This document shows, piece after piece, positions 273 to 27,509 of a stretch of DNA of 59,312 nt (position 1 is the first letter of the stretch; every line of letters starts with the position of its first letter). The translations under genes were made by a program, and so were the position numbers. The DNA comes from Candidatus Falkowbacteria bacterium RIFOXYC2_FULL_36_12. GTDB taxonomy: Bacteria > Patescibacteriota > Patescibacteriia > UBA11705. The notes under the pieces are model-generated. The model was not told the DNA's origin. It did no database searches and was given only the letters and a program-made list of their open reading frames with translations. The stretch lies in contig MFGJ01000008.1 of NCBI GenBank assembly GCA_001778235.1, forward strand, positions 1 to 59,312. Reading direction: 5' to 3'.

Positions 273-1355
273 TTAATACCTACCAACCAATTCTTTGACC
301 AATTTTGCATATTCTTCTCGAGCATCCTGTGGCATTGCATTATTAATATTTTCCCCCAATCCTAACAACTGATCTCTTTTCAACAACAAGCTTTCAATCA
401 TTCCTATAACATATTCCGGATCAAAATCCTCTTGTCTGACATAAACAATTGCCTGTTTTTTATAGAAATATTCAGCATTATCTTCTTGTTGATTATCTGG
501 AATAGGCATAATAATTGCTGGTTTTGATAATGCAGACAATTCTGTCAGAGTCGAAAATCCAGCCCGACCAAAAACAATATTTGCTACCACATAAGCATCT
601 GACAACTCTCGACCCAAAAATTCATAAGCATGATACCTATGATTATTTTTCAATTCAATATTGTTCAACCATTTAGATTGCTCACCTTTACCAACAACAT
701 GAATCACTTGGCAAAATTTTGTCAATTCTTTATTTTTATCAATAAATAATCCGTTTATTATTTCCGAGCCTACACCGCCTCCAACAATCAACAATGTCGG
801 AACATTGTTTTCCAATTTAAAATATTGTTTTGCTCTCTCAATATTTCCGGAAAAAACAACTTTTCTTGTCGGATTGCCCGTAACAACTACCTTTTCTCTT
901 GGAAATTTTTCTCTTAATTCTGGCAATGCGACAGTTATTTTTGATGCCACGGGAACCATTAATCTATTTGCCAAACCTATCTTCAAATCTTGCTGATGGA
1001 CCAAAACTCTTTTACCTAATATTCTGGCAGCATAAGCCACGGGGACACAAACAAAACTACCTGCAGTCAAAACTATCTCTGGATTAAATCGTACAATCAG
1101 CCACAAAGACTTTAGAAAACCAACAAAAATCAAAACCAAATCCGTAAAATTTCTCCAATCAAAATATCTTCGAAGCTTGCCACTTGGAATTGATTTGAAA
1201 TTTATTTTATTTTGTTCAACTATTTGTTTTTCTGGACCTCTCTTTGTCCCGATGAATAAAAATTGTACATCAGGCTCAAAACTCAATTCTTCTTTTACCG
1301 CAATTAGAGGGCTGACCGACCCCATTGTCCCACCGCCTGTTAATAATATTTTCAT
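273..1355 (-). CDS. murG: MurG, undecaprenyl-PP-MurNAc-pentapeptide GlcNAc transferase
   Basis: N-terminal MKILLTGGGTMGSVSPLIAV (G-loop). C-terminal GRAGFSTLTELSALSKPAIIMPIP...QQEDNAEYF matches the MurG donor-binding region. Start moved to the ATG at 1355 (MKILL); the track ORF extends to 1415 into comFC. Confidence 0.85.
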   Translation of the reverse strand: MKILLTGGGTMGSVSPLIAVKEELSFEPDVQFLFIGTKRGPEKQIVEQNKINFKSIPSGKLRRYFDWRNFTDLVLIFVGFLKSLWLIVRFNPEIVLTAGSFVCVPVAYAARILGKRVLVHQQDLKIGLANRLMVPVASKITVALPELREKFPREKVVVTGNPTRKVVFSGNIERAKQYFKLENNVPTLLIVGGGVGSEIINGLFIDKNKELTKFCQVIHVVGKGEQSKWLNNIELKNNHRYHAYEFLGRELSDAYVVANIVFGRAGFSTLTELSALSKPAIIMPIPDNQQEDNAEYFYKKQAIVYVRQEDFDPEYVIGMIESLLLKRDQLLGLGENINNAMPQDAREEYAKLVKELVGRY

Positions 1356-1357
1356 AA

Positions 1358-2050
1358 TTATCCGTGCGCAACAGCAGCTACAATTATTTTTCCTGCACCG
1401 GCCATTTTCAGACACTCTGCTGCGGAATCAAATGTAGCACCAGTTGTTATAACATCATCAATTAAAATTATTGTCTTGTTTTTTATTAACTCTGGTTCAT
1501 TACAAACAAATGCTTGTTGCAGATTTTCAATTCTCTCATTTCTAATTAACTTTGCTTGTTGTTTTGTGTTTTTACATCTGATTAATGCCTTTTCACGATA
1601 ATCAACACACAGATTTTCAGCCACATACTTGGCAATCAAGGCACTTTGATTAAAACCTCGTTCAAGCAATCTTTTTTTGTGCAAGGCAATCGGGATGCAA
1701 ACAACATTTTCTACTAACCTATATTTTTCCAATCTTACCACCAACAAATTAGCCAATTCCTTAGCTAATTCTTCTATAAAATCATATTTTAACTTATGAA
1801 TAACCGTCTCAATCATTTGCCCTTTATATCGACAAACAGCCACAGCTGAATTGAAACTACTTGATTTCTGACAAACATCGCACACTCCATCTTCAGCTGT
1901 ATTTTGATTGCAAATTAAACAAATATTTTCATTAATCATTATTACCTTTTTCTGGCAATCATTACACCAAATCTCTCCATCTTTCCCACAAACCAAACAC
2001 TCTCGAGGAAACAAAATATCAGCAAAAAAAGTTTTTAATCTCTGTAACAT
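1358..2050 (-). CDS. comFC: ComF-family phosphoribosyltransferase-fold protein (ComFC-like)
   Basis: N-terminal CxxC pairs (CLVCG...CNDCQ, CLICN...CDVCQ) plus the PRTase motif IILIDDVITTGATF. Alternative start at 2068 would overlap the upstream gene by 17 nt. Confidence 0.8.
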   Translation of the reverse strand: MLQRLKTFFADILFPRECLVCGKDGEIWCNDCQKKVIMINENICLICNQNTAEDGVCDVCQKSSSFNSAVAVCRYKGQMIETVIHKLKYDFIEELAKELANLLVVRLEKYRLVENVVCIPIALHKKRLLERGFNQSALIAKYVAENLCVDYREKALIRCKNTKQQAKLIRNERIENLQQAFVCNEPELIKNKTIILIDDVITTGATFDSAAECLKMAGAGKIIVAAVAHG

Positions 2051-2051
2051 T

Positions 2052-2624
2052 TTATTCCCAATAAACACTTGAGATCAACCATTTATCATTTTCTTTATTA
2101 AATTTCACCCTAACTCCTTGTTCAACCGTCACATCAGTCGCAGTTGGATTGGCCTTTTTATTCCTCTTGGTTTTTACTAATATTTCAGCCGTATTTTCAT
2201 TATAATCCACGAATTCCGCAGAAACCACCGTAGTAACCACCGCATAATAAGCATTATTTTTTGAATATTCCGAATTCAAACTTTGAAGATAATTATTATT
2301 AACCCATGACTCAAACCCATCAGTCATCATCAACCGTATATCTGCAAAAACTTCATTTGAAGACAATAAATCAGCCGAATAAGTACCAAATCTAGCTGTA
2401 AAATCTTTCGCTTGATTTATGAGCGCATTTTGTGTCTTCTCATTTTCAGATAATGCTGGCGCATCATATTCCAAAGTTCGGCTGGTCACAGCTTGCTCTG
2501 AAGATGAGTCATCAATTTTTAATTTGTTTGTTTGATCACGAAAAATTAACAACCATAACATAGAGATGATAACAATCAATCCGACCAACAACAATATTAA
2601 TATTTTATGTCCTCTTGTAAGCAT
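2052..2624 (-). CDS. Membrane-anchored 190-aa protein; candidate VirB8/TcpC-like (NTF2-like) component
   Basis: One N-terminal TM (ILILLLVGLIVIISMLWLLIF) followed by a ~150-aa alpha/beta-looking domain. Lies directly downstream of virB4. The family call rests only on architecture and context. Confidence 0.35.
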   Translation of the reverse strand: MLTRGHKILILLLVGLIVIISMLWLLIFRDQTNKLKIDDSSSEQAVTSRTLEYDAPALSENEKTQNALINQAKDFTARFGTYSADLLSSNEVFADIRLMMTDGFESWVNNNYLQSLNSEYSKNNAYYAVVTTVVSAEFVDYNENTAEILVKTKRNKKANPTATDVTVEQGVRVKFNKENDKWLISSVYWE

Positions 2625-2665
2625 ATTTTTCTATTTATTATTTTCATTACAAAATTAACGCAAGT

Positions 2666-4549
2666 TTATGCCTCACTAGCTTCTTCTGCCTGTTTCTTTT
2701 TTTGTTTCTCCATTTCCAACAATTGTTTTGGATCAGAAGTAATAATCGAATCTTCAAGACCAGAGGCCACAACCTTTATTGCCACATGCTTATCTCCGGC
2801 GAAAAAAATTCCTTCACCAACATTACTTTCAAGCAATAAATACTTCTCGCCTTTAGTCAAATCAAATGTTTTCGATACAATATCAACCGACGACACTGAT
2901 TGTCTCATTAATATTTTCAAAGCTGAATTATTTACAATACCAGGACCATATTTTGAACCAAGAAAATCATTTACATCCTGTGTAATCGTAGTCACACCTA
3001 AATAATATTTTCTACCTCGTTTTACCAGACCGTGAAGAAATCTTGCTGAATCATCGTTCATCATCAGCCACCAAGCTTCATCAACCACCAAAATTCTTTT
3101 CTTCAATTCTGATCTCACAACATTCCAAACATAATTTACAATATTATAAATTGCCATTGCTCGAAGCTCATCTTCAAGGTCTCTGACACTATAAATCACC
3201 AACTGATTACTCATATCAACATTGGTTGGAGCATTAAACAACCCAGAAAATGTTCCAGAAGTAAATTTTTTCAACCGTAGAGCAATATCAGCACCGCCTT
3301 CCATACCATCCAAAACCTGATATAAATCTTCCATCAGTGGTGGTTCAATCTTGGCTAAATCACTTTCTGGAGTAATATCTTTTTTAGCATAAGTTTCAAT
3401 CAAAGCCCGATCAATTACTGTATCTTCCTGAAAGGTCCATTCACCAATCATTAATTTCAACAAGCCCTTGATATTAATTACCGCACTTCGAATAATATCT
3501 TCAACCGAAGTACTGTCACCAACCGCTCTTGGCAGATCAAATGGGTTAATTTTACTCTCGGAATTTAATGAAATATTGACAAAAGTCCCACCAACAGCAT
3601 CAGATAAAAGTTTATATTCTTTTTCCGGATCAATAATAATCACATCCGTTCCCATCATCATTGACCGCAACACTTCCAATTTTATTGTATAACTTTTACC
3701 AGCACCTGAAGTTGCGAAAACCGTACAATTAGCATTTTGCAATGAAAAACGATCAAAAATTATCAAACTATTATTATGCCGATTTATACCATACAAAATA
3801 CCATTATCAGAGGTCAAATCAGATGAAATAAACGGAAAGGAAGAAGCAATTGGCGAAGAATTCAAATTAGCCGTTATCATCAACTCATCATTTCCGATTG
3901 GAACGGTTGAATTAAACCCTTGTTCTGCTTGATAAAAAACTCTTTTCGTATAAACCATTCTTGAGCCAAACACAGATTCAACATCTTCTGTCAGCTTATC
4001 AAGATCTTCTTCTGTCTTGGCATACAAAGTAGTATACAGAGCAAATTGAAAAAATTTTTCCACACCTTGAGTCAAATCATCTCGAAGTTGTTCAATATCT
4101 TGCAAGGCAGTTTGTCTAAGTGGATCTCTTGGTTTACCATCTTCAGCATCACTTGAAAGCTGTGCTTGCAAAACACCCACTTTATTTTTTAACTGTTTTA
4201 ATACCAATTCTGATTCCATTGGATAAAAGAACATCCCAATATCCAAAGATGAATTATAATTAATTATCGGAGCAAACCAGCCAACAGATATATAGCGAGG
4301 ATAAGCCATAACAAACAAGGTCCGAGCGTACAGCCCACCAATTTTTACAAAAGATGGTTTAATATCAAAAGCCGCCGGAGCAATCAAATCCAAAACCGAG
4401 ACTACCCCTTGTCTGTAAACTTTTTCCTGTTCAATAATTTGTGTTGACTGCGCAGTTTCTTGCTCAATCTGCTTCTCTTCTTCAATTTCGGTCAATGTTG
4501 GCTCAACCGGCTTTTCTGGGCCACGAAGAGCTTGATCAGGTTTAAACAT
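2666..4549 (-). CDS. virB4: VirB4/TrbE-type type IV secretion ATPase
   Basis: Walker A FATSGAGKSYTIK, Walker B RILVVDEAWWLM, downstream GVTTITQDVNDF. The N-terminal part LIAPAAFDIKPSFVKIGGLYARTLFVMAYPRYISVGW resembles Gram-positive-type VirB4. Confidence 0.8.
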   Translation of the reverse strand: MFKPDQALRGPEKPVEPTLTEIEEEKQIEQETAQSTQIIEQEKVYRQGVVSVLDLIAPAAFDIKPSFVKIGGLYARTLFVMAYPRYISVGWFAPIINYNSSLDIGMFFYPMESELVLKQLKNKVGVLQAQLSSDAEDGKPRDPLRQTALQDIEQLRDDLTQGVEKFFQFALYTTLYAKTEEDLDKLTEDVESVFGSRMVYTKRVFYQAEQGFNSTVPIGNDELMITANLNSSPIASSFPFISSDLTSDNGILYGINRHNNSLIIFDRFSLQNANCTVFATSGAGKSYTIKLEVLRSMMMGTDVIIIDPEKEYKLLSDAVGGTFVNISLNSESKINPFDLPRAVGDSTSVEDIIRSAVINIKGLLKLMIGEWTFQEDTVIDRALIETYAKKDITPESDLAKIEPPLMEDLYQVLDGMEGGADIALRLKKFTSGTFSGLFNAPTNVDMSNQLVIYSVRDLEDELRAMAIYNIVNYVWNVVRSELKKRILVVDEAWWLMMNDDSARFLHGLVKRGRKYYLGVTTITQDVNDFLGSKYGPGIVNNSALKILMRQSVSSVDIVSKTFDLTKGEKYLLLESNVGEGIFFAGDKHVAIKVVASGLEDSIITSDPKQLLEMEKQKKKQAEEASEA

Positions 4550-4561
4550 ATTTTATTTTTA

Positions 4562-5281
4562 TTATTCTTCTAAACGAAGCTTATCTACTTGTTGAATTTT
4601 TTGTTTTACTGAAACTTCCGGATTATAAACATTATAATACAATTCAATCAAACTCTGGGTATCGAGGCGACCTACCTCGAGCCCCATTTCACCAATATGA
4701 GTCTTCACATGTTCCACTCGCTGATTCAATGAATAAGAATACTTATCAAATTTTTTCTGATTTAATTTTATTACCTGCCCAGGAGTGAAAAGAGAACCAA
4801 GCCTTGACCAAAAACCTCTTGATTTATCTTCAAAGGGTGTATATGGCACCACTACAAAAAAACTCTTATTCATTATATCACCCAAGTCAACCAATTCTTG
4901 TATGTATGCCTGATAATTTACCATCTGTCGTCGAAGTAATTCATTACCGATTTCTGATTCTTGCGTTTTCAGCTTGGCAACATAATTTGATATATCCAAC
5001 TTCCTTGACTGAATTACAATTTGTATTGGGAAATCAAGAAAATTCAAAAACCTAACATAAGTTGACACAACCGCTTCCTGCTCATCTTCTGATTTCAAAG
5101 CAAAATTCAAACTTGAAACCATCATCACAGCACGCAAGGTTCCATCCTTCATTATCACAGTATCATTTTTTATTTCAGCAATATCCAGAAACAATTGTGT
5201 TGATTGAGTTATTTTATTTTTTGCCAGTGTTTTACTCTGCATCTCATTAATTTTCTTTTGTGATTTTGCTTTCTTGGCCAT
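4562..5281 (-). CDS. 239-aa protein resembling the extreme N-terminal module of VirB4/TrbE ATPases
   Basis: Segment LFLDIAEIKNDTVIMKDGTLRAVMMVSSLNFALKSEDEQEAVVSTYVRFLNFLDFPIQIVI recalls, from memory, the start of Tn916 Orf16/TrbE-like VirB4 proteins. Sits 12 nt upstream of virB4. No TM. Confidence 0.35.
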   Translation of the reverse strand: MAKKAKSQKKINEMQSKTLAKNKITQSTQLFLDIAEIKNDTVIMKDGTLRAVMMVSSLNFALKSEDEQEAVVSTYVRFLNFLDFPIQIVIQSRKLDISNYVAKLKTQESEIGNELLRRQMVNYQAYIQELVDLGDIMNKSFFVVVPYTPFEDKSRGFWSRLGSLFTPGQVIKLNQKKFDKYSYSLNQRVEHVKTHIGEMGLEVGRLDTQSLIELYYNVYNPEVSVKQKIQQVDKLRLEE

Positions 5282-5310
5282 ATTGAAAAATTAAATTTCT
5301 GTATTTTTGT

Positions 5311-5339
5311 TTTATATAAATTATATAATTCTCTGTCAA
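5311..5339 (-). promoter_or_regulatory. Sigma70-type promoter for the 4562-5281/virB4 sub-operon
   Basis: Minus strand reads TTGACA (5339-5334), a 17-nt spacer, then TATAAA (5316-5311), inside the only sizeable gap (70 nt) of the gene block. Confidence 0.5.
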
Positions 5340-5351
5340 ATATTTTTGCTA

Positions 5352-5873
5352 CTATACTTTTTTCTGATTTAGATCATCCATTATTCGAGCTTTATCATCT
5401 ATCTTGCCCTTATCTTCCAGGAATAGATCACTATCTTCATAATAATCATCTTCCCCCTTATAAACACCTCCAGTATTAATAATCAAAGCCATATCTTGCA
5501 ATCTTGAACCTGAAACTGATTTTTTCAGAGGCTTTATTTCAACCACACCACCTTTTTCATCCTTAATCTCTTGAACCTTTTTTACATAAGATTCTTTGTT
5601 CCAAATTCTGATTTTTGGTCTTTTGAATGTTTGAAAAAAATTCAACAAGAAAAAATGTACTGGCCTACCATTTATTCGCACAAAAGCCAATGAAGCAGCT
5701 AGACCAAAAGTTACTAGAGCAATCGGTACAAAAAACACGAAGCTTAGCAATTTATATTCAAGCGCCCCAATCAATAATGCTGATATCATAATCACAAACT
5801 GACGCACAGTGATAAAAGCAAAAATCTTATCTTCAACTTCAATAAATTGTGGGACTAGAAATTGAGTTGGCAT
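5352..5873 (-). CDS. PrgI-family / VirB3-like small membrane protein
   Basis: N-terminus MPTQFLVPQFIEVEDKIFAFITVRQFVIM followed by two TM helices and RINGRPVHFFLLNFFQTFKRPKIRIW. This is the PrgI-family layout as I remember it. Sits in a virB4 cluster. Confidence 0.6.
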   Translation of the reverse strand: MPTQFLVPQFIEVEDKIFAFITVRQFVIMISALLIGALEYKLLSFVFFVPIALVTFGLAASLAFVRINGRPVHFFLLNFFQTFKRPKIRIWNKESYVKKVQEIKDEKGGVVEIKPLKKSVSGSRLQDMALIINTGGVYKGEDDYYEDSDLFLEDKGKIDDKARIMDDLNQKKV

Positions 5874-5875
5874 AT

Positions 5876-7063
5876 TTAAATTTCAAAATTTTTATTAAAC
5901 CCCAATACTTCATCAAACTCGCTCAAAGTTAAAACTGGTTGATTTTTTACTTGACGATCAACAATAATTTGATCCAAAGATTTATTAGTCAAAATACTTT
6001 GGAGCCCCATTTCTGTGTACAATTTATGAACTTCAGACTCTCTCCAAGCTTTCAAACCATCAACACCTTTTTTCCAAGAATCTTCCTGCAAAACTGCAAT
6101 TTTTTCTTTTACTTCTTCCATCATCTCATTAGCATCCCGACCCAAGCGACGAAAATCTTCGAGTGTCATTTGCCGTAACTCTTCTAATGGACCTACCAGC
6201 TGTGGCTTATATTTTACCTCTTTTTCTTTTATTTGGGCTGGTTGGATTAACGGTTGCAAACTAGGAATAGCTTCTTTTTTCAAACCAATTTCCTGTTTTT
6301 GTGATTGTTGACTATTTTGTCCATGACTCAAAATCAAATTTTGAGCTGAAACATTGGCCTTTTCACCAGCAATCAAACGATCAAGCATTTCTTTACCTTT
6401 ATTTTCAACTGGTTTTACAACTGGCTTTTCTTCAACTGGTTTTACAACTGTCGTTGGCTTAATCTCTACTGGTTTTGCAACTATTACTTTTTTATTAGGA
6501 ATAAAACTTTTATGGATTGCAAGCAATTCTTCTTTTTTCATTTCTGGAACTTTCTTTTCTTCTTTTTTTACTTCAATTTTTCGAACAGCAACATTTTGCT
6601 TTTTTTCAACTAATTTTTCATTATTTTGTGGCAAAACATTTCTATTTCCATCAGTAAATTTTGACGCATGTTTCTTTATTACCGCTAGCACCACATCAGC
6701 TTTTCTTTCATCCAGTCCCATACCACCATCAGTCTTGTCCGTCATTAACATATACTTTACTTCTTTATCTCCACGAACTTCACGAAATCTGGAACCAACC
6801 ACGCTAAAAAACCTTCTTTTCATTTCTTCCTCTGTAAAACTGATTTTGAGCTCTGACACCACCGCTTCAACCGCTTTATTTACAACCACATCTCTTTCAG
6901 ACAAAACTCTATTAGGAATATTTTGTTTATCTGTTTTTTCAACCTTGTTAGCAGGTTTTTTACCAGCATCAATTTCATCAATATCAAAATATTGGCCATC
7001 TTTATAATATTTAAGATTACCATCCTTATCTTTAACCAAAATGTAATCATCTTTGTTTGACAT
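5876..7063 (-). CDS. Hypothetical 395-aa K/E/P/V-rich protein in the T4SS-like block
   Basis: Long ORF 2 nt from the next gene. Central low-complexity KPVEIKPTTVVKPVEEKPVVKPVENK; no TM; no recognisable motif. Confidence 0.6.
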   Translation of the reverse strand: MSNKDDYILVKDKDGNLKYYKDGQYFDIDEIDAGKKPANKVEKTDKQNIPNRVLSERDVVVNKAVEAVVSELKISFTEEEMKRRFFSVVGSRFREVRGDKEVKYMLMTDKTDGGMGLDERKADVVLAVIKKHASKFTDGNRNVLPQNNEKLVEKKQNVAVRKIEVKKEEKKVPEMKKEELLAIHKSFIPNKKVIVAKPVEIKPTTVVKPVEEKPVVKPVENKGKEMLDRLIAGEKANVSAQNLILSHGQNSQQSQKQEIGLKKEAIPSLQPLIQPAQIKEKEVKYKPQLVGPLEELRQMTLEDFRRLGRDANEMMEEVKEKIAVLQEDSWKKGVDGLKAWRESEVHKLYTEMGLQSILTNKSLDQIIVDRQVKNQPVLTLSEFDEVLGFNKNFEI

Positions 7064-7066
7064 AAT

Positions 7067-8566
7067 TTACAACCACTTAAATACTTTATTTTCTACATCA
7101 AAGTAAGCTAAATGTGACAAATCCATCTTGCCTTGATTGCGGAAAATATTACTGAAATGCACTGCCACTCTGGCAGATTGGCTTTCACCCAATCCCAATC
7201 TTTCTAGCAAAATATATTTTATAAAATATTTCAAAAACTTTGGATCAGATTTATCCATTTCAAACTCCTTTGCTTCTGCTTTCAAGTTATTCCGCTTGAA
7301 ATATGATTGCATCAATTCCTGGAAAGTTTTCTCTCTAATTAAAATATCATCAATTAATCCGGCTTCAATCACCAATTGCAAACAGGCCAAGATCTCAACT
7401 TTATTTCTTTCTAATATACGATCATAAAAATAATTTACCAATTTATCATATTCTTTTCTTGTTTGCTCAACAATTTTTTCAGTTGCCTGTTCCAAAGCTT
7501 GTCTCTCCGATTCATTGCCAAGATACATTTCTTCTAGGTTCTTTGTTTTTTTCACCACTCCACCTTCAGTTGTACCATTTTCATCTTTTGGTTCATATTT
7601 AGCTATAAAATCCTGTTGTTCTTTCTCTGTAAATGGGAATATCTGAATCTCATCCAATTTTAATCTTTTGGAGTTATAATAAAAATTCTTCAAATTTTCA
7701 TACAAATCAAACACTCTATCAATCACAGCTCGTTCATCTTCACCGAGAGCATTTATATTCTTATTATTATTATAATATTCTGCTTTTTGCATTGTTGTTA
7801 TCCGATCACTTTCAGCCACCTTTATTTCTGTTGAAAAATTTTTCAGCCAATTGCCGATAGTTGGTTCAATCATTTCTCCTTTTTGTTCAATTGGTTTTTC
7901 CGTGATTTTTTGTTTATTCGCGAAAAGCGCATTAATCAATTGTGGTTGATAAGCCTGATCGGTGAGTAGCAGTGTGGTAATAATAATATTAAAATCTATT
8001 CTCATCAACAGCTGGTCAGTCGTCAACACCTCCAGAGCTCTTTCCCTCAAAATCTGCACCATTTCTTTTATTTCATCTTCAGGTTTACCGATTTCAAGTT
8101 CCTGGGCTCGATCAGTAATGTCAATATCTACCTTTTTCACACTCTCTTCATCTTCAACATTTTCTGATGTTGCTTTTGCTTCATTAGCTAATTCATCTTC
8201 ATAGCTTCGTATGTTTTTTGAATAAACTGCTGAATCAATTCCCAAAGTTTTCAAGATTTCACTGACCTTACCCTCAAAATAGTCATCAACAATCAGCAAT
8301 CGTAAACCAAGCAAATCAATTAAAAATTCTTTGGCTTCAATCTGATCCATATTCAATCTTTTACTGATTTCTGACTGCAAATTATCCAAAGGAATTTGCT
8401 TCAAAAAAACTTCGGTTAGCACCTTTGTTGCTTCCTGCATTTGCGACAGAGTTAAAAAATATTTATCCGCTATCTCAACCGAAAAATTTACTCCTGTTTG
8501 AGATAAGAAATATTTTTTTACTTCTTCTGGCAACGCATTAATTTTGTCATTGATAGTTTGATCCAT
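7067..8566 (-). CDS. Hypothetical 499-aa soluble protein in the T4SS-like block
   Basis: Long ORF with 3-nt gaps to both neighbours. Acidic and helical-looking; no motif I can name. Confidence 0.6.
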   Translation of the reverse strand: MDQTINDKINALPEEVKKYFLSQTGVNFSVEIADKYFLTLSQMQEATKVLTEVFLKQIPLDNLQSEISKRLNMDQIEAKEFLIDLLGLRLLIVDDYFEGKVSEILKTLGIDSAVYSKNIRSYEDELANEAKATSENVEDEESVKKVDIDITDRAQELEIGKPEDEIKEMVQILRERALEVLTTDQLLMRIDFNIIITTLLLTDQAYQPQLINALFANKQKITEKPIEQKGEMIEPTIGNWLKNFSTEIKVAESDRITTMQKAEYYNNNKNINALGEDERAVIDRVFDLYENLKNFYYNSKRLKLDEIQIFPFTEKEQQDFIAKYEPKDENGTTEGGVVKKTKNLEEMYLGNESERQALEQATEKIVEQTRKEYDKLVNYFYDRILERNKVEILACLQLVIEAGLIDDILIREKTFQELMQSYFKRNNLKAEAKEFEMDKSDPKFLKYFIKYILLERLGLGESQSARVAVHFSNIFRNQGKMDLSHLAYFDVENKVFKWL

Positions 8567-8569
8567 AGA

Positions 8570-11269
8570 TTATTTTACTGAAACTCTATTTTGTTCGTCC
8601 CTTAAATTCTTTTGTTTTTCTCGTTGTCGATCAATTTGGTTATTAAAATCTTGCTGTTCAGCTGGAGTAGCTGCACTATTTCGCTGACCTTCAAGTTTGG
8701 TAATTTTATCTTTAATTTGAGTTTCACGAGCCTTTAAGACTTTATCAGCATAAGCTTTGGCAATATCAGTGAATTCACCACCTTGGAGTCTCGGATTATT
8801 GGCAATAGCCTTGACTTCAATCATATGCTTTTGAACTTCAGGATCTGACAATATCGCAGGATCATCTTCGGGCACACCAAGTGAAGTCGCCGCCGCAGTT
8901 ACAGCTTCTTTGAATGAAGCTGCCAATTCTCCAACTATTTCCTTTGCTCTTCCAGCTTGACCAACCGCTACCATATCCCCAACCTGTCTATCAGTTATAT
9001 TCCTTGCCATTGCTCTTTTATTATCAGGCAATTGAGCTGAAATATCTATTTTTGCCAATTCTTCACCACGCAGACCACGAACATAATCCCCAATTGCTTG
9101 TTTTTTCTGATCAACCGTAGCTGGGATAACCACACCACTACCATCAACACCACGGTTGGCAAATGACGCCTCCATATCTTTGGTAATTTCAGCGTGTGAT
9201 CTTTGAAGTTGAGATACCTGATCTTTATCACCAGCAGTATTGGCAACTCCCATTCTTTTTTGTAAAACCTTTAATCCAGCATCTTTTGCCGTTGGCGAAG
9301 CATCAACCATTTTTACAATTGCCTCACCCATTTGTCGTGGTTTCAAAACTTTTGAAGCAATATCCATCACTCCTTGATCTGACAAAACACTCGGATCCAA
9401 ATTTTCCAATTTTAATTTTTTATCCTTAAAAGCTTTTTCCATGTCGCGTCTGCCAGCAGTAGTCGCAGTATCATATTTCAAATGACCAAATTTTGCCCCC
9501 ATCTTCTTATCCAGATTATCTAACACCCCTGACATTCCACTATATGCACTTCTAATTTGTTGAATTGATTTATGATCCTGTTCACCATCAAGCATGTCTC
9601 CTTCAGCCATTCTCTGCAGAGCAGCAGCTCTCTCTTCTTTTGAAGCACCCTGATTTCCCAATATACCCCGCAATATTTTTTCACCTTTTGGTCCTTCATA
9701 AGTCTTCATTTTTTTCATTTTCTCCTCAATAATCTGGTTTGTTGCTCCAGACTCTATTGCTTCCATTCTACTACCAGCTTTTCTCCAACCACCAACAGTT
9801 CCTTCAGTAAAGGTTGACAAGCCACCTTCGGCCGCACTCCTGATGAACTTGCTTTTTGCCGCCGCCGCCACTCCAGCGCCAATTCCGCCTCCAGTTGCCC
9901 TTGACTGACGAAAAGCTTCAGTCATTGAACTTACAGAAGCTCGGACAGCCCCAATCGGTGCTTTTAGAACTCCGCCAGCCATCCCCAAAGCCCCACCAAT
10001 TGGCCTGGCAATTGTTTTACCAATTAATTCCGAACCTTTCTGTACAACTTTTCTTTTTATAGCTGGAATTGCTTTTTTCTGAACATAGTCTCTTGAGTAA
10101 TTATAACCAGAATATTTTTTACCTTTGTCAGTCGCCCATTTTGCCGTTGCCGCCGCAAACCCAGAACCCAATTGTTTAGTCACTTCATAAGAAGCGTAAA
10201 GCATTGTTAATGAAATAACAAACGGTAAAAATCTTTCAATTGATTCAAGCGGATGTTGTGTTGCTCCACCAGATTCTTGCGCTACCAACCGTGATTCAGT
10301 TGTAATTTGATCTGTCAAAACATTTTCTTGAGTATTGGACATCACCATCAATGATAACCAAAGAAAAAAAGCCAACACCGGACCAATAATCAAATAATTA
10401 CTAAAGGACTTCCACCACATCGCAGTATATTTATCAAGAAATTTAAACCCAATAAATCGCAAAAACCCAAATGGTGATGTAACTACCAGAAGCCAAATCA
10501 TCACAATTCTAAGCGCCAAAACCGAAATTATCATAAAAGTTATAATTCCAGTTGCTCCAAGAAATATAATGGTAAAAACCATGTTAGCAAAAATTTCAAA
10601 CCAATCACTCTGAAACCCATCAGATAGACTTGCCGCTTCAGTCTTGAAAGAAAAATAATCCCTCATACCAATACCTTCAATCAAATTGGCACCAGCGGTA
10701 GCAGCATAACCATTAACAAAAGTCATCATCACTACTTGTGCAATATCAATCATCAAAGCGCAGATAAGTTTACTAAAATTAATCAATATGGCAATCACCA
10801 ACAATTTTACCAGAACTCCCTTGTCTCCGACTTTTGATTCTAGTCGTAATATCATGGCAAAAGCATAAACCAACAGTAATACCACGATCATCATGTTGCA
10901 TAAATCACGAATTATCACCCAGCCTTTATTGACCGCTACACTCCCAACAAAATTATCATAAGTGCTAAGAAGTATCAGCAAAACAAAAATCTGTTTTACG
11001 ATTAATGCCATGACATAAGCAATACCATAGGCAATATAAGCCAAAATCTTTGACACAAAGGCGAGCACACCTCCACCAACCGCAGCAATCACACTACCTT
11101 CTTCAGCCAAAACACTATTGCCCATCAATATTCCAACCAACAATAAAACCAAAAGACAACCAACAAAAAGTTTGGTGTTTCTCGGTCTGAATAAATTTAA
11201 AATTCGTGCAATACTAAAATGATAAAACTGTTTAATTTTAGCTGCAATCATGTATAATTTAAAACGCAT
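8570..11269 (-). CDS. Polytopic membrane protein, VirB6/TrbL-like, with a ~450-aa hydrophilic C-terminal extension
   Basis: Signal/TM at the N-terminus, then about 8-9 hydrophobic helices over the first ~370 aa, a G/A-rich linker (GGALGMAGGVLKAPIGA...ATGGGIGAGVAAAAKSK) and a charged tail. First gene of the block. Family call comes from topology and context. Confidence 0.45.
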   Translation of the reverse strand: MRFKLYMIAAKIKQFYHFSIARILNLFRPRNTKLFVGCLLVLLLVGILMGNSVLAEEGSVIAAVGGGVLAFVSKILAYIAYGIAYVMALIVKQIFVLLILLSTYDNFVGSVAVNKGWVIIRDLCNMMIVVLLLVYAFAMILRLESKVGDKGVLVKLLVIAILINFSKLICALMIDIAQVVMMTFVNGYAATAGANLIEGIGMRDYFSFKTEAASLSDGFQSDWFEIFANMVFTIIFLGATGIITFMIISVLALRIVMIWLLVVTSPFGFLRFIGFKFLDKYTAMWWKSFSNYLIIGPVLAFFLWLSLMVMSNTQENVLTDQITTESRLVAQESGGATQHPLESIERFLPFVISLTMLYASYEVTKQLGSGFAAATAKWATDKGKKYSGYNYSRDYVQKKAIPAIKRKVVQKGSELIGKTIARPIGGALGMAGGVLKAPIGAVRASVSSMTEAFRQSRATGGGIGAGVAAAAKSKFIRSAAEGGLSTFTEGTVGGWRKAGSRMEAIESGATNQIIEEKMKKMKTYEGPKGEKILRGILGNQGASKEERAAALQRMAEGDMLDGEQDHKSIQQIRSAYSGMSGVLDNLDKKMGAKFGHLKYDTATTAGRRDMEKAFKDKKLKLENLDPSVLSDQGVMDIASKVLKPRQMGEAIVKMVDASPTAKDAGLKVLQKRMGVANTAGDKDQVSQLQRSHAEITKDMEASFANRGVDGSGVVIPATVDQKKQAIGDYVRGLRGEELAKIDISAQLPDNKRAMARNITDRQVGDMVAVGQAGRAKEIVGELAASFKEAVTAAATSLGVPEDDPAILSDPEVQKHMIEVKAIANNPRLQGGEFTDIAKAYADKVLKARETQIKDKITKLEGQRNSAATPAEQQDFNNQIDRQREKQKNLRDEQNRVSVK

Positions 11270-11304
11270 GCACCACTATTTAAATGGCTAATTTTTCTAT
11301 CTAA

Positions 11305-11333
11305 ATTATACCACAAATCACCCATTCAAACAA
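11305..11333 (-). promoter_or_regulatory. Extended -10 promoter upstream of the VirB6-like gene
   Basis: Minus strand reads TTGTTT (11333-11328), a 17-nt spacer, then TGgTATAAT (-10 at 11310-11305). About 35 nt upstream of the ATG at 11269. Confidence 0.45.
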
Positions 11334-11438: not shown

Positions 11439-11885
11439 TTGTCATCCTGAATCCTGTCTGCCGAAAGGCAGGTTGTTTCAGGATATAATTCTTCAACTTA
11501 CACTTGTCATCCTGAACTTGCTTGTCCATCGAAGTTTTAACGAAGATGGATTTCAGGATATAATTCTTCAACTTACACTTGTCATCCTGAACTTGTTTCA
11601 GGGTATGATTCTACGCCCCTCACTTGTCACCCTGAACTTGTTTCAGGATATAATTCTTCAACTTACACTTGTCATCCTGAACTTGCTTGTCCATCGAAGT
11701 TTTAACGAAGATGGATTTCAGGGTATGATTCTACGCCCCTCACTCGTCACCCTAAACCCTATACTCGTCACCCTAAACCCTACACTCGTCACCCTAAACC
11801 CAACACTCGTCATCCTGAACCCTACACTCGTCATCCTGAACTTGTTTCAGGATCTCCGGGTACTGTTTCAGGATCTCCGGGTACT
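11439..11885. repeat. Array of nested palindromic (REP/BIME-like) repeats
   Basis: Ten copies of the core gtca[tc]cct[ga]aac and seven of its complement tttcagg[ag]t form short hairpins. Two units carry an inserted hairpin (tccatcgaag...gaagatgga). Five 21-nt tandem units run from 11742 (four complete, 11742-11825; a fifth starting at 11826 runs into the next repeat). A 21-nt unit tgtttcaggatctccgggtac occurs twice. Confidence 0.9.
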
Positions 11886-11956
11886 ATTTTCATCATCTCT
11901 AGATATTCTTGCGAAGCCTTCAAACTTAATATACAACAACTTCAAAATTTACAAAC

Positions 11957-12043: not shown

Positions 12044-12475
12044 TTATCGAAAATTTAAACCCTCAAAATCAGCTTCTGGACTATCATAAACTTCGCTCGA
12101 AACATTAGAATCATAGGAATCCTCATCCCAATTTAGAGAATCAGGTACTGCCTCTGGGCTATCATAAACCTCTGAATCATTATAATAATTACTATTATCT
12201 AAAATTGGGTTTTGAAAATTCAACGAACTTGGATCTGCCTCCGGAGAATCTAGGACTGGGTTATTATTTTGAGCCGAGGAGCCTGACACCGCAGTTGCAA
12301 CATTATTAACTGGTTCTGTTTCCCGAATAGCAGAATCCTCAACAACTTCTACAGTCGGAACAACCACTTGAGCTTGCTGATTATCTTGACTTACTTGATC
12401 CTCGCACGATGCACCAAGTAGCAAGAAAATAAATACAAACAATATTATAGAAATTTTTCTCATAAACTTATACAA
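12044..12475 (-). CDS. Small secreted or lipoprotein with three DSPEA-x-LN(F/W) motifs
   Basis: Signal peptide ISIILFVFIFLLLGASC (possible lipobox). Repeats: VLDSPEADPSSLNF, VYDSPEAVPDSLNW, VYDSPEADFEGLNF. Alternative start at 12463. Confidence 0.6.
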   Translation of the reverse strand: MYKFMRKISIILFVFIFLLLGASCEDQVSQDNQQAQVVVPTVEVVEDSAIRETEPVNNVATAVSGSSAQNNNPVLDSPEADPSSLNFQNPILDNSNYYNDSEVYDSPEAVPDSLNWDEDSYDSNVSSEVYDSPEADFEGLNFR

Positions 12476-12523: not shown

Positions 12524-14389
12524 TTATGACGATTTTATTTTTGTTTTAAAGAATTGTACGAGATGTCCGAAGTTCAACCTGATAAAACCCATAATAACAT
12601 TCCTCTTCCAAATAACTACTCCTACAATCAGGAGTAAAAACAAAATCCCCGTCAATAAATACTTTTGCCAATTCTCATTTTCGCCAATAGTCGCAACCAT
12701 ACTTAGCGGGACAGCCAAACCTATCAATTCATCAGCCATTACTTCTTCAACAATCAAATCATTCTCACTTCTTGGTAAAATTTGAAATTCAGTTTCACTT
12801 TTGATCAAGACACCAACCACTGACAACGAATCTCCAACTTCATACATTTTACCAGCCAGACCAGTATTTGGTTTTAACACTACAAAAAACTCCCCAAATT
12901 CATCAGCCAAGGTTAATTTACTTCCTGACTTATCAACCAACTCTCCTGAAATTTTAACTAATTTTGCAACAAAATTTTCGTTAACATTTTCTAATTGTAG
13001 CTGTTCAGGGACAATTTCAGTTTCTTGGTCTAACAAAGAAAAATCATCAAGCAACACTCTTTTTTCGCCTTTGCTTTCAGACACCCGACCCTGAATTTTC
13101 ACCACTTGTCCCTCTGTCAAATCATCGGGCCAAAGAGCCTTTGAACTGTACAACTGTATGCCATCAAGATACATTATTTGCTTCCCGAAAATATTCGGGA
13201 GTACAATTATCTTTCCTTCAAATTCAATTTTTTTTCCTTTTTCAATATTCTTAATTTCAGCAATCTCAACTCGTGAATACTCATTAGTAATTGGTTCATC
13301 ACTTTCTTGTTTTTTATCTTCATCGCGCACCATTGCAACTTCAAAATCATCTTCAGTGTTTAAAATATTCTCTTCATCTGGCGTGATACTATTAGTCCAA
13401 ACCCATTCTTGCCCAAACAAACTAAAAGAATTATTTTCTTCTACCTCCTCATAACTACACTGATCAATTATTATTTCACCGTCCAATAATCTAACTTCAT
13501 CACTGGTATTATTCAAAGTCAACCTTGTAATGTCATTGGAAAAAATATGATACTCACCCGGACCGATAATAACATTGGAAATTAAATATGGCGCACTCCC
13601 GCCATCAATATCATCAAGATACAAACCTGACAAATCAAGCGCTTCTGAACCAAAATTAAACAGCTCAATCCACTCCTTAGCGACATCACTACCAGCCGGA
13701 TCAGGGAAGATTTCATTCAGTTTTATTGTCCAATTTATCTCCTCTATTTTTTCATCAATAATCTCCTGATTTTCCTCCAGCACTTCATCTTGATCCTCAA
13801 TTATTTCTTCAATTATATTTTCCATTCCAGGTGTCACTATTGTTGTCACCACAAAATCTTCAAAATCATTATTTCTTTCTTGGTTAATAGCTTTTCTAAC
13901 AACAGAATATGGATCAACAGCTGACAAAGCATTATCAGTCAAATCGCCATCATCAAAATCACCATAGCTAACTTTATCAATCAATATTTCTTCATACATT
14001 AAATTTATAATATCACCAGAATTATTAAGGCTGGAAACTTCAAACATTTTATAGTCAAATGAATCCAAATGACCAGTCAACATAAATTTCCGTCCAGAGC
14101 CTTCAGTTAGATAAAAATTTTCCAAATTCACACTTCTTTCAGTTGTATTATATACTTCCACCCATTCTGTTCCACCACTGACTGGATCAGATACAAACTC
14201 ACTGATTACAATCATACCTTCAAATATTTTATCCTCTCCACCAAGAGTTAAATTATCTAGATTATACTCACAAGCACAACTGCAACTACACTGAAAATCA
14301 TCACTATTTATAGACATATCTTGAGCCAAAACATTTTTTCCAAAAAATATTACACCCAAAATAATAATTGCTAATACTATTTTTTTCAT
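12524..14389 (-). CDS. Surface protein with two lamin-tail domains (LTD), two OB-fold-like modules and a C-terminal TM anchor
   Basis: LTD-like ISEFVSDPVSGGTEWVEVYNTTERSVNLENFYL and LNEIFPDPAGSDVAKEWIELFNFGSEALDLSGLYLDD. OB-like EIAEIKNIEKGKKIEFEGKIIVLP... and VAKLVKISGELVDKSGSKLTLADEFGEFFVVL. N-terminal signal; C-terminal TM LLTGILFLLLIVGVVIW. AGGAGG sits 6 nt before the ATG. Confidence 0.7.
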   Translation of the reverse strand: MKKIVLAIIILGVIFFGKNVLAQDMSINSDDFQCSCSCACEYNLDNLTLGGEDKIFEGMIVISEFVSDPVSGGTEWVEVYNTTERSVNLENFYLTEGSGRKFMLTGHLDSFDYKMFEVSSLNNSGDIINLMYEEILIDKVSYGDFDDGDLTDNALSAVDPYSVVRKAINQERNNDFEDFVVTTIVTPGMENIIEEIIEDQDEVLEENQEIIDEKIEEINWTIKLNEIFPDPAGSDVAKEWIELFNFGSEALDLSGLYLDDIDGGSAPYLISNVIIGPGEYHIFSNDITRLTLNNTSDEVRLLDGEIIIDQCSYEEVEENNSFSLFGQEWVWTNSITPDEENILNTEDDFEVAMVRDEDKKQESDEPITNEYSRVEIAEIKNIEKGKKIEFEGKIIVLPNIFGKQIMYLDGIQLYSSKALWPDDLTEGQVVKIQGRVSESKGEKRVLLDDFSLLDQETEIVPEQLQLENVNENFVAKLVKISGELVDKSGSKLTLADEFGEFFVVLKPNTGLAGKMYEVGDSLSVVGVLIKSETEFQILPRSENDLIVEEVMADELIGLAVPLSMVATIGENENWQKYLLTGILFLLLIVGVVIWKRNVIMGFIRLNFGHLVQFFKTKIKSS

Positions 14390-14456: not shown

Positions 14457-15152
14457 CTAAGCTGCTAACTTTTCTAAAATTTCTTCTGACACATACAAAT
14501 ATGGATAATCTTGAGCTTTTTCAACAAATTGCCATCTATCCCTGACAGGTGCATCCAAAACATATTGAATGTTCTTCATCAATTTATCTTCATTATTAAG
14601 CAGGAACAATTTAGATTTTGCCTCCCAAACTTTATACCTTTTTACATTGTCATATTTCTTAGCTTCCTGCTTAAAATCCCAAAGAATTTTTCTTGGTTTT
14701 GATCGACTAACTTTCTCATTATTCTCAAATAAATCTAACAACTTATATTGATAATCATCACCTTTTGACTCTTCAACCAAATTTTTTATAATTTCCAGTG
14801 TTACATTTTTCTTTACTTCGCCATAAACCGAAGCCGGATCATCACTTTTTTCACTAAGCCGAAAAACCCAATAAAAATGATTTGGCATTATGACATAAGC
14901 CAAACTTTTAACATCATGTTTGAGCTCTGCCAATTTAAACCCATTTACCAATAAATCCATGTATTCTGGAGTTACAAATACATTCTTTTTATTAATAATG
15001 GCAGAGGCATACATGTATGTTCCTCCCACCTGACGCAAGGGGACATACCCCTGCTGGTCACTTGATTGACCCGCATTACTGACAGTTGTTTTGTCAGCGT
15101 TGTTGTAATTTGTTTGAGTTACAACGGTTTTTAATTGTTCTTTTGTAGACAT
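14457..15152 (-). CDS. IS200/IS605-type Y1 (HUH) transposase homolog, RAYT-like, with a degenerate HUH motif
   Basis: LAYVIMPNHFYWVF aligns with the MPNHvHll HUH motif (here H-F-Y). C-terminal KVWEAKSKLFLL...NIQYVLDAPVRDRW...DYPYLYV aligns with vWq.rf.d..i...YI..NPv.agl...dYpwSS, which carries the catalytic Tyr. Confidence 0.55.
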   Translation of the reverse strand: MSTKEQLKTVVTQTNYNNADKTTVSNAGQSSDQQGYVPLRQVGGTYMYASAIINKKNVFVTPEYMDLLVNGFKLAELKHDVKSLAYVIMPNHFYWVFRLSEKSDDPASVYGEVKKNVTLEIIKNLVEESKGDDYQYKLLDLFENNEKVSRSKPRKILWDFKQEAKKYDNVKRYKVWEAKSKLFLLNNEDKLMKNIQYVLDAPVRDRWQFVEKAQDYPYLYVSEEILEKLAA

Positions 15153-15421: not shown

Positions 15422-15790
15422 ATGAGGCCTATCAGACTTCTTCTGTCACTGATGATAGCCTTCCTGTTCGGCTGTCAAAGCGATCTTACAAAAATCATAA
15501 CCCAGACTGAAGGATTACAAAAAATCGAACAAACACAAGGAATTATCTTATACGGTTTTTGTTCCTTTCGAACTTTTGATCGGGGAATTTTACTGAACAC
15601 CAACGATTATCCCCTTAAGATTCGCCAAGTGGAACAAACTGCCTATGGTGAAATAACAGCATCAATGAAATTCCTTCCTTCAAAATCGATACTACAATTA
15701 TCAATATCACCACACCAGATCGCCGTTTACATCTACACAATTAATGGCGCTCTGATTAGTTTTATTGCTTGTAAATGTCCTAAAAAATAA
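15422..15790 (+). CDS. Lipoprotein, unknown function
   Basis: MRPIRLLLSLMIAFLFGC has a lipobox (LFGC). AAGGAG sits 9 nt upstream of the ATG at 15422. Confidence 0.65.
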   Translation: MRPIRLLLSLMIAFLFGCQSDLTKIITQTEGLQKIEQTQGIILYGFCSFRTFDRGILLNTNDYPLKIRQVEQTAYGEITASMKFLPSKSILQLSISPHQIAVYIYTINGALISFIACKCPKK

Positions 15791-15792
15791 AA

Positions 15793-15827
15793 AACTCTTG
15801 CTAACATGCAAAAGTTCTTTTTATTTT
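15793..15827. terminator. Bidirectional rho-independent terminator between convergent genes
   Basis: Stem aactcttgc/gcaaaagtt (one mismatch), loop taacat, followed by ctttttatttt and preceded by an A-run. Confidence 0.55.
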
Positions 15828-15840
15828 AAACTAATTTTAT

Positions 15841-26554: not shown

Positions 26555-26588
26555 AAAAACTACTCAAATTCATTGAGTAGTATTTTTA
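26555..26588. terminator. Bidirectional terminator between convergent genes
   Basis: Stem ctactcaa (26560-26567) pairs with ttgagtag (26573-26580), 5-nt loop. Flanked by an A-run and tattttta. Confidence 0.6.
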
Positions 26589-27509
26589 TACACCAAGTGA
26601 TTTTTTTACATCCAGATAAACTATGTTATCCATAGATTGTCGGATCACATTATCAGCCAATCTTAACTTTCCAGCCAAAAGTTTACACAAATTTACATAA
26701 ATTCTATAACCTATAAACGGGAAATCCTTAGAAAGAGAATTGAATTTGGCAGAAGATATTTTATTCACATGAACATCAGACATGGCTCGAATTGTCGCAG
26801 TCCTTGATGTCCCCAGCAAAAACGAAATCTCTCCAAAAATATCATTATCCTTCAATCCTGCAACTTTCCTTTCATCAATCAGAACATCAGCCTGACCAAG
26901 AACAATCTGAAACAACTCCGAACCAAAATCACCCTCTTGGACAATATTTTCCCCTTGTTGATATTCAGCCGTCGTGAAATATTGCCTTAACCATTCCATC
27001 ATATGATTAGACAAACCAGTAAATAGGGAAGTATCTCGTTTTTGTCCCACATCAAGCATAACTTCAGAAAATTTGGTTTTAAGATCATATCCAGTTTGCT
27101 TCATGATAAAATCATCGACCATAATCAACTTTTTTGACAAAATTTTCGCAAGATTAGCTATCAATTTAATCGCCACCTCTTTTTTTGCTTCTGCAATTAA
27201 ATCAACTTCCCCTGCATTCATTGCTAGAAGTTCAACACTCCCAGAAGCAAAAATTGACGCCGTTCTTGTCCCATTATCAATCAATGAAACTTCACCAAAT
27301 ACATCACCTGGCCCAAGGTCTACCACCCAAATAGTTCCTACATAGACTTTCACTGTACCTGACTTTATTACAAACATCTGATTACCTGGCTCGTCTTCAA
27401 GCAGTACTGGTTCAGCATTTCTATAAGTCACTAAACGCGAATATTTTCCAATGAGCCCAACCTCTTCAGCACTCATGGATTGGAAAATATTAACCACCTG
27501 CATTGTCAT
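26586..27509 (-). CDS. Protein made of two cyclic-nucleotide-binding (CAP_ED) domains with no output domain
   Basis: FGEVSLIDNGTRTASIFA and FGEISFLLGTSRTATIRA phosphate-binding cassettes. Start set at ATG 27509, which has AGGAGG 6 nt upstream; the track ORF begins 37 codons earlier. Confidence 0.8.
   Translation of the reverse strand: MTMQVVNIFQSMSAEEVGLIGKYSRLVTYRNAEPVLLEDEPGNQMFVIKSGTVKVYVGTIWVVDLGPGDVFGEVSLIDNGTRTASIFASGSVELLAMNAGEVDLIAEAKKEVAIKLIANLAKILSKKLIMVDDFIMKQTGYDLKTKFSEVMLDVGQKRDTSLFTGLSNHMMEWLRQYFTTAEYQQGENIVQEGDFGSELFQIVLGQADVLIDERKVAGLKDNDIFGEISFLLGTSRTATIRAMSDVHVNKISSAKFNSLSKDFPFIGYRIYVNLCKLLAGKLRLADNVIRQSMDNIVYLDVKKSLGV

Follow-up and report, generated by a model that had tools for sequence, protein, structure and literature searches.

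We studied a block of eight co-directional genes on the minus strand (1358-11269) of a 59,312-nt stretch of a Candidatus Falkowbacteria genome (contig MFGJ01000008.1, assembly GCA_001778235.1). In the following, the whole stretch is called the window and all positions count from its start. We are highly confident that the block represents, for class ABY1 (Falkowbacteria), the chromosomal and vertically inherited type IV secretion system (T4SS) of Patescibacteria, i.e., a system that goes back to the conjugation machinery of monoderms (MPF-FATA) and has lost its relaxase. This bears out an earlier reading made from the letters alone (the sequence-only reading), which had proposed a chromosomal, non-conjugative T4SS derivative of Gram-positive type: the block is relaxase-less and belongs to a Patescibacteria genome of episymbiont type. 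The two functions which that reading suggested, feeding DNA to ComFC or contact with host cells, are treated below as hypotheses, such that its interpretation finds support only in part. Taken as a whole, the explanation favoured here is likely to be correct. A considerable part of bacterial diversity consists of Patescibacteria, which grow attached to host cells. In the only cultivated model, the T4SS is essential, and what it moves and which way is of interest.

Both the finding and its interpretation were known before, since they are described in Quinonero-Coronel et al. (2025; PMC12102498). That is, the T4SS cluster, the comF/recG/radA neighbourhood in ABY1 and the idea of DNA import are already published. 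That study, whose dataset includes Falkowbacteria as ABY1, reports a monophyletic Patescibacteria VirB4 clade that is sister to MPF-FATA. TrsD is the commonest virB4 neighbour, PrgI/VirB3 and VirB6 homologues are present, and VirB8 homologues are nearly confined to ABY1. Genes of the type IV coupling protein (T4CP) mostly lie distant from virB4, and relaxases are nearly absent (only about 100 Patescibacteria genomes). ABY1 T4SS loci commonly include comF, recG and radA, and the import of DNA or other macromolecules from hosts has been proposed. The window locus is one ordinary member of this published pattern.

The sequence-only reading had listed eight open reading frames (ORFs) with intergenic gaps of 1-41 nt and a single exception of 70 nt. 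All eight were found on the minus strand where it had placed them, and the spacing is as described: from the VirB6-like gene to comFC the gaps are, in order, 3, 3, 2, 70, 12, 41 and 1 nt, followed by 2 nt to murG. The comFC ATG (2050) thus lies 1 nt past the stop of the preceding gene and the murG ATG (1355) 2 nt past the comFC stop. Such close spacing is not special to the T4SS block: the comFC-murG pair is equally tight, and so are several pairs of housekeeping genes in other parts of the window. Since comFC is coupled as tightly to murG (2 nt), short spacing alone is no evidence of wiring between comFC and the T4SS. The 70-nt gap (5282-5351) does contain the promoter-like element that had been read there (5311-5339, minus strand), with TTGACA at 5339-5334, a 17-nt spacer and TATAAA at 5316-5311. 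An extended -10-like motif, TGGTATAAT (11305-11313, minus strand), lies 36 nt upstream of the VirB6-like ATG and is a candidate operon promoter. Both are consensus matches only, in AT-rich DNA, and are best regarded as putative promoters; a scan for promoter-like sites returned 51 observed vs. 43 expected.

The 627-aa protein (2666-4549, minus strand) reaches 343 bits against the NCBIfam model NF045971 (conju_CD1110; curated cut-off 325), where the match covers profile positions 178-734 only, and it also matches Pfam P-loop_TraG, AAA_10 and DUF87. The Walker motifs claimed by the sequence-only reading are readable in the translation (Walker A GAGKS, Walker B LVVDEAW). From its sequence, we identify it as a VirB4 ATPase of the monoderm CD1110 type. 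The 239-aa ORF (4562-5281, minus strand), which ends 12 nt upstream of virB4, matches positions 93-232 of NCBIfam VirB4_plasma (Mbov_0397) at 2.5e-11, TrsD at 5e-5 and positions 19-96 of CD1110 at 4.8e-4; its public record is tagged PF26593 (TraC-like). Because this TrsD-type protein matches the N-terminal part of full-length VirB4 models, VirB4 is encoded in two pieces, as in pGO1-type systems. Such a split is the normal state in the Patescibacteria clade and in pGO1-type systems (PMC12102498). An unsplit VirB4 in Peregrini-/Gracilibacteria was considered and rejected, as the N-terminal extension of their proteins is not TrsD-like.

The suggested profile search with hidden Markov models thus places VirB4 above its curated cut-off. 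For the 173-aa protein (5352-5873, minus strand), the Pfam PrgI score is just above it (27.4 bits, cut-off 27). Given its two transmembrane (TM) segments, this agrees with the PrgI/VirB3-like two-TM protein of the sequence-only reading, and we regard it as a borderline PrgI/VirB3 assignment from sequence.

Next, we compared VirB4 with its relatives. The nearest ones are from Candidatus Falkowbacteria (81% identity), followed by Uhr-, Magasanik-, Kuenen-, Komeili- and Veblenbacteria (61-72%), which together form class ABY1, and by Peregrini-/Gracilibacteria (about 52-55%). All of the best 80 genome matches are Patescibacteria (51-81% identical), where similarity serves as a proxy for clade membership. 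The best of 2383 plasmid matches shows 35.8% identity, and the top ones come from monoderm hosts.

The 899-aa protein (8570-11269, minus strand) has eight hydrophobic segments. Its AlphaFold2 (AF2) model (pLDDT 78.6) combines a confident TM bundle (~36-311), a disordered linker (386-498) and a large, confident, all-helical and hydrophilic C-terminal domain (500-899). The protein itself has no direct Pfam or NCBIfam match, while Pfam TrbL/VirB6 is found in 5/41 of its homologues (best 4e-7) and many homologues carry precomputed PF19590 (TrbL_3) or PF04610 annotations. Foldseek returned no match to the model at E<=0.001; the sole high-probability matches are to TrwI/VirB6 of R388 (prob 0.97-0.99, TMt 0.39-0.46, E 0.2-0.4). 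The C-terminal domain gave generic alpha-solenoid matches only (E>0.04). The polytopic VirB6-like protein of the sequence-only reading is thus recovered through the homologues' TrbL/TrbL_3 assignments and a weak structural match to TrwI/VirB6, i.e., there is indirect support from sequence and model for an extended VirB6.

For the 190-aa protein (2052-2624, minus strand), structure prediction and a Foldseek search had been suggested, and a VirB8-like NTF2 fold came out. The AF2 model (pLDDT 82.4) shows an N-terminal TM helix (segment 8-26), a variable linker and an NTF2-like domain. It matches PrgL (7aed), an IcmL-like protein (5cnl, TMt 0.69), CagV (6iqt, TMt 0.67) and TcpC (3ub1). Within the VirB8 family, E-values range from 2e-4 to 7e-4 and TMt from 0.31 to 0.69, with the lowest value for TcpC, which is a longer chain; generic NTF2 folds match at similar E-values. 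A homologue search with the single sequence returned only the protein itself, such that a family profile had to be built from synteny-derived orthologues. The resulting 42-member profile gives a full-domain match to PrgL that is non-significant (E 1.4). Given fold, bitopic architecture and position taken together, the modelled protein is VirB8-like. That the gene directly downstream of virB4 has a VirB8-like predicted fold in essentially all ABY1 loci is one of the points added here.

The sequence-only reading had left three proteins without a nameable family. This no longer holds for the 239-aa protein, which resembles TrsD and the N-terminal part of VirB4, and it stands for the 499-aa (7067-8566) and 395-aa (5876-7063) proteins, both on the minus strand. 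Neither of them matches Pfam, NCBIfam or PDB sequences, profiles of the two families gave no match to Pfam or PDB sequences either, and both proteins are without a TM segment or signal peptide, i.e., apparently soluble. The 499-aa protein is a lineage-specific member of the cluster. The 395-aa protein begins with a small motif, followed by a helical domain, a linker rich in Lys, Pro and Glu, and a conserved helical domain of about 115 residues, which is C-terminal in every case within the family. An exhaustive search assigns 2190 representative clusters to this family at E<=1e-3, and no additional Pfam domain was found in ten of its long members. Strict profiles reveal single proteins in other ABY1 lineages (L041, Uhrbacteria-type loci) in which the first 110-320 residues typical of the 499-aa family are joined to the body of the 395-aa family. 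The very large (>2000 representative clusters), uncharacterised 395-aa family and its fusion to the 499-aa family in other lineages are further additions to the published picture.

In one locus (L053:7167-9221), a 684-aa ORF comprises the N-terminal domain of the 499-aa family and the 395-aa family and continues into the usual PrgI position; the fusion could be genuine, or it could result from an assembly error or a frameshift. Given that the two families are fused elsewhere, once running on into the PrgI position, the sequences suggest that both proteins work together on the cytoplasmic face of the VirB3/VirB4 complex. Paralogy of the two proteins was rejected, since direct comparison and the 395-aa profile show no similarity to the 499-aa protein. 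The apparent relationship arose because natural fusion proteins had contaminated a profile.

To what extent the arrangement is shared was assessed by iterated profile searches over 80 species-level loci. TrsD adjoins virB4 in 63 loci, PrgI is found just upstream of TrsD/VirB4 in 59, and the 395-aa family is present in 59, directly upstream of the PrgI gene. The VirB8-like gene immediately follows virB4 in 56 loci. A VirB6-like gene was seen in 33, where many loci end too early to show one. Altogether, the order VirB6/[499]/395/PrgI/TrsD/VirB4/VirB8-like is conserved in about 56-63 species-level genomes.

The last gene of the block, comFC (1358-2050, minus strand; 230 aa counted from the ATG at 2050), matches Pfam DZR_2 (1.4e-10) and Pribosyltran (1.1e-7) as well as TIGR00201 (ComF; 5.8e-29, below the curated cut-off). 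Its translation shows four CxxC pairs and ILIDDVITTGAT, i.e., a double zinc ribbon and a phosphoribosyltransferase domain. Among the 53 ABY1 loci with enough downstream sequence, comFC immediately follows the VirB8-like gene in 36. The sequence-only reading had named a lack of this adjacency in related genomes as evidence against itself; given the 36/53 loci, the adjacency is not absent from relatives. In contrast, the comFC-murG adjacency is restricted to the 4-5 closest (Falkowbacteria) loci, such that the VirB8-like/comFC junction outlasts the comFC-murG junction over deep divergence. A recG gene lies within 10 kb in 16 loci, and a distant relative on an 812-kb contig shows the identical order with recG 2.4 kb past comF.

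In the remaining 17/53 ABY1 loci, comFC is missing from that position. We scanned the downstream region of five of these with Pfam, and 4/5 encode proteins of 390-456 aa with an N-terminal T4SS_pilin domain (PF18895, VirB2-like; L030:7482-8852; L050:12877-14055 and 15546-16787; L022:14212-15561; L037:5751-6968). One of these proteins is fused to a VanY/M15 D-Ala-D-Ala peptidase, which makes it a possible pilin-hydrolase fusion. Sequence similarity extends the pilin-domain genes to 11/17 of the loci without comFC at this place. Altogether, such genes occur in 13 loci, 11 of them lacking comFC after the VirB8-like gene. This alternative of comFC or pilin downstream of the ABY1 cluster (4/5 by Pfam scan, 11/17 by similarity) is likewise added here. 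The window itself contains no homologue of the ABY1 pilin-domain proteins and no small two-TM pilin-like ORF. One further contig (L084; ERZ4902915 NODE_12414, 2.8x coverage) was considered as a strain without the T4SS and rejected. Its comFC/murG segment is identical to window positions 906-2372 and is joined to infB with the breakpoint within the VirB8-like gene, i.e., it is most likely a chimeric assembly.

We then studied the genomic context for traces of mobility. Contigs identical to the window exist in a public metagenome-assembled genome (GCA_001778155.1) and in a JGI metagenome. GC content and skew are even across the window. As the sequence-only reading had stated, no relaxase, integrase (tyrosine/serine recombinase) or partition (Par) gene was found by Pfam and NCBIfam among the window ORFs of at least 110 aa; the same holds for the Pfam-matched genes that were called over 10 kb on the far side of murG. 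The housekeeping flank was confirmed as well: murG (273-1355, minus strand; TIGR01133, 2.2e-66) is a co-directional neighbour outside the T4SS, and the source contig continues beyond it with divIC, a SurA-like gene, ftsE/ftsX and recG.

Two genes had been overlooked by the sequence-only reading. The first one, which lies in the window between dnaX and pheT, 26 kb from the cluster (37204-39744, minus strand), encodes an 846-aa homologue of VirD4/TraG-type coupling proteins. Its residues 422-779 match Pfam T4SS-DNA_transf, TrwB_AAD_bind and TraG-D_C, and NF045973 (CD1115) is matched at 3.5e-13. Walker A (GSGKS) and Walker B (YIDEF) are intact, and the N-terminal part comprises one TM segment and a region of about 400 aa of unknown fold. 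It is a possible partner of the T4SS cluster. Immediately upstream of this gene is a 93-aa ORF (39791-40072) with a single TM segment.

The second one (14457-15152, minus strand), located 3 kb upstream of the cluster in the vicinity of hairpin repeat arrays, encodes a 231-aa homologue of REP-associated tyrosine (RAYT, Y1/HUH) transposases. The NCBIfam score is 73.9 bits (cut-off 80, E 1.2e-20), and there is no Pfam match. GC-rich structured repeat arrays (11453-11890 and 1-184) flank the murG-to-VirB6 block. The upstream array is composed of hairpin units TTCAGGRT...AYCCTGAA (x4), 21-nt units (x5) and a GAAA-loop hairpin, and the array downstream of murG of a 100-nt unit (x1.8) with a folding z-score of -5. 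Copy numbers of the repeats vary among otherwise identical public contigs (L081, L082, L083). The 13-mer CCTGTCTGCCGAA occurs at 34-46, 134-146 and 11453-11465, i.e., on both flanks, with a chance expectation of 0.02. It was considered as a mark of island att sites and rejected, since the enclosed segment includes murG, different species share the gene order and the copies of the motif are located within different GC-rich hairpin arrays.

Given these observations, we consider it very unlikely that the block is part or remnant of an integrative conjugative element whose relaxase escaped recognition (e.g., a divergent HUH enzyme with a distant T4CP). The VirB4 family does originate in conjugative elements, a T4CP is present, a HUH-type RAYT homologue lies nearby, and the 13-nt motif is found on both sides of the block. 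But the repeat-flanked segment includes murG, composition is uniform, and the order is conserved across many ABY1 species within a housekeeping setting; nor is there a MOB family, integrase or Par gene among the ORFs that were scanned. RAYT enzymes are domesticated and REP-associated, and there are hairpin repeat arrays close by. In addition, the rarity of relaxases in Patescibacteria (about 100 genomes; PMC12102498) argues against a conjugative element. A decaying, non-functional remnant is even less probable, to the point of being negligible. The separation of VirB4 from its N-terminal-like domain, along with the lack of a locally detected VirB1 or VirB2, could be taken for decay, but every ORF is intact, Walker motifs are kept, and about 60 species retain each of the genes at identities indicative of purifying selection. 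Furthermore, the TrsD/VirB4 split is normal for the clade and for pGO1-type systems, and a homologous system is essential in Saccharibacteria. Little weighs against the identification as a Patescibacteria T4SS, apart from the VirB6 assignment being indirect and the PrgI score borderline.

Judged by the families of its parts, this T4SS would form a minimal cytoplasmic-membrane translocon of VirB6, PrgI/VirB3, VirB4 with TrsD, the VirB8-like protein and the two soluble proteins. A VirB4 hexamer, with TrsD as a separate N-domain, would dock on the membrane platform of VirB3, VirB6 and VirB8 and power the passage of macromolecules across the single membrane and the wall, probably where the host cell is contacted. 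Concerning the cargo, we tentatively favour, at somewhat less than even chances, that the ABY1 T4SS takes up DNA from the attached cell and hands a single strand to ComFC. DNA import is favoured because in two thirds of the ABY1 loci the VirB8-like gene is followed by comFC, and because recG and radA are found nearby; it gains weight because the comFC junction outlasts the neighbouring junctions and because Ced and ComB provide precedents. The ABY1 arrangement, i.e., a T4SS followed by comFC with recG and radA near, is the best genomic hint of DNA handling. A fuller version, in which the T4SS is a cell-to-cell importer that passes single-stranded DNA from host or sibling to the co-transcribed ComFC and on to RecG/RadA, with the 395- and 499-aa proteins as cytoplasmic adaptors, is conceivable from the sequences and more doubtful still.

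Several observations weigh against DNA import. In the transposon sequencing (Tn-seq) study of Wang et al. (2023; PMC10633639), the T4SS of S. epibionticum, a member of the Saccharibacteria, is essential for epibiotic growth, while ComEC, ComF and DprA are not; transformation with free DNA needs ComEC, and deletion of comEC abolishes it and leaves viability unaffected. A 2025 review comes to a conclusion that agrees with this study on the essential T4SS and the dispensable com genes, and our literature search found no functional study later than these. Whatever the core role of this T4SS clade is, it cannot, by the S. epibionticum results, rest on the com genes. Moreover, the comFC adjacency is absent in other Patescibacteria classes with the same T4SS clade (PMC12102498), and within ABY1 it is missing from the 17/53 loci described above, most of which carry pilin-domain genes instead. 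In the window, comFC is equally tight to murG, dense packing is a genome-wide property, and the T4CP gene is unlinked to the cluster.

Nearly as likely as DNA import is protein export or a host contact that is independent of com genes. Here, the T4SS would export proteins (effectors or surface structures) or form a host-contact conduit, and comFC would be an unrelated neighbour kept by synteny inertia, given that the genome is compact and co-directional. Much of what speaks against import fits this alternative: the homologous S. epibionticum T4SS is essential without ComEC, ComF, DprA or T4CP being so, comFC is as close to murG as to the T4SS, and pilin-domain genes take its place in 4/5 scanned loci, or 11/17 by similarity, of the 17/53 without it. 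No relaxase was found in the window, and the soluble 499- and 395-aa proteins might serve as substrates or adaptors. On the other hand, neither the window cluster nor its surroundings contain a recognisable effector, adhesin, pilin or wall hydrolase. Synteny inertia also has to account for a comFC adjacency that survives deep divergence longer than the comFC-murG adjacency, and for DNA-transaction genes (comF, recG, radA) being enriched near ABY1 T4SS.

The rest of the window mainly encodes housekeeping functions (pheS/pheT, tsf, rpsB, dnaX, a sigma factor, glycosyltransferases, methyltransferases, Nramp and ion exchangers), and Rfam and tRNA scans of the window returned only a tRNA-Gln (33100-33173). 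A 621-aa protein (12524-14389, minus strand) is encoded upstream of the VirB6-like gene, both in the window and in three Falkowbacteria loci (L002, L003, L072). It starts with a signal/TM segment, has two lamin-tail domains and ends with two TM segments. The protein also contains an OB-fold as in ExeM/NucH extracellular nucleases without the nuclease domain and, from its sequence, could be a surface nucleic-acid-binding protein. Between this gene and the repeat array, a 143-aa acidic lipoprotein-like ORF (12044-12475, minus strand) shows repeated 'YDSPEA' motifs; it has no family match and no homologue in 80 related loci.

Two larger proteins of 535 aa (15841-17448) and 1208 aa (18267-21893), both on the minus strand, flank a TPR protein. 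Both have an N-terminal signal/TM segment without a family match and could be surface proteins or adhesins of the episymbiont. A 298-aa ORF without family match (42707-43603, minus strand) is located between pheS and pheT, from which it is separated by 1 and 13 nt. Cyclic-nucleotide signalling in a reduced genome is indicated, as far as the sequences tell, by a protein with two cyclic-nucleotide-binding domains (26586-27620, minus strand) and a 543-aa adenylate/guanylate cyclase (55631-57262, minus strand). Finally, the gene at 30086-30481 (minus strand) encodes a type IV pilin-like protein whose N-terminus carries a methylation motif. Just upstream of its gene (about 30560-30680), a tandem 21-nt repeat gives rise to 'MEHGTWN' repeats in a plus-strand ORF.

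In comparison with known systems, the window locus is closest to the T4SS of the Patescibacteria clade (PMC12102498; S. epibionticum SEML1_0006-0019, PMC10633639). Shared features are the chromosomal location, the lack of a relaxase, the set of VirB4, TrsD, PrgI/VirB3 and VirB6 (plus VirB8-like), and a T4CP encoded elsewhere. With the class-ABY1 members, the locus also shares comF and recG nearby. The Saccharimonadia locus differs by a VirB2-like pilin array and a VirB1-like hydrolase, neither of which was detected in the window's 59 kb, and the window locus has two large soluble proteins (499 and 395 aa) that are left unnamed in PMC12102498.

With MPF-FATA systems (pGO1/pSK41 TrsC-TrsD-TrsE; pCF10 PrgH-PrgI-PrgJ-PrgK-PrgL; CTn2 CD1110), the locus has in common the CD1110-type VirB4 and the absence of an outer-membrane core. 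The separate TrsD upstream of VirB4 recalls pGO1, and the order VirB6...VirB3-VirB4-VirB8-like resembles PrgH-I-J-(K)-L of pCF10. Unlike these elements, the locus has no relaxase, no adjacent T4CP and no PrgK/TrsG-type hydrolase, and it is found in a chromosomal housekeeping context; plasmid VirB4s are at most 36% identical to its VirB4.

The Helicobacter pylori ComB system with ComEC/ComFC is likewise a relaxase-less chromosomal T4SS, and a hand-off to ComFC is conceivable in both. ComB, however, is a diderm MPF-T system with VirB7/9/10 and VirB2 that brings DNA into the periplasm. The cell studied here is monoderm, neither VirB7, VirB9, VirB10 nor an MPF-T VirB2 has a Pfam or NCBIfam match in the cluster or the window, and there is no homology-based membership. 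The archaeal Ced/Ted systems (CedA VirB6-like, CedB VirB4-like) share the minimal, relaxase-less VirB4 + VirB6 type and set a precedent for DNA import between cells. Ced differs in its lineage, in the CedB model (NF041017), which scores VirB4 with 41 bits (cut-off 700), and in its pilins, which the window locus lacks. If the ABY1 T4SS were indeed a cell-to-cell DNA importer, it would be the first monoderm bacterial counterpart of archaeal Ced; the idea is already in print, such that only its demonstration would be new.

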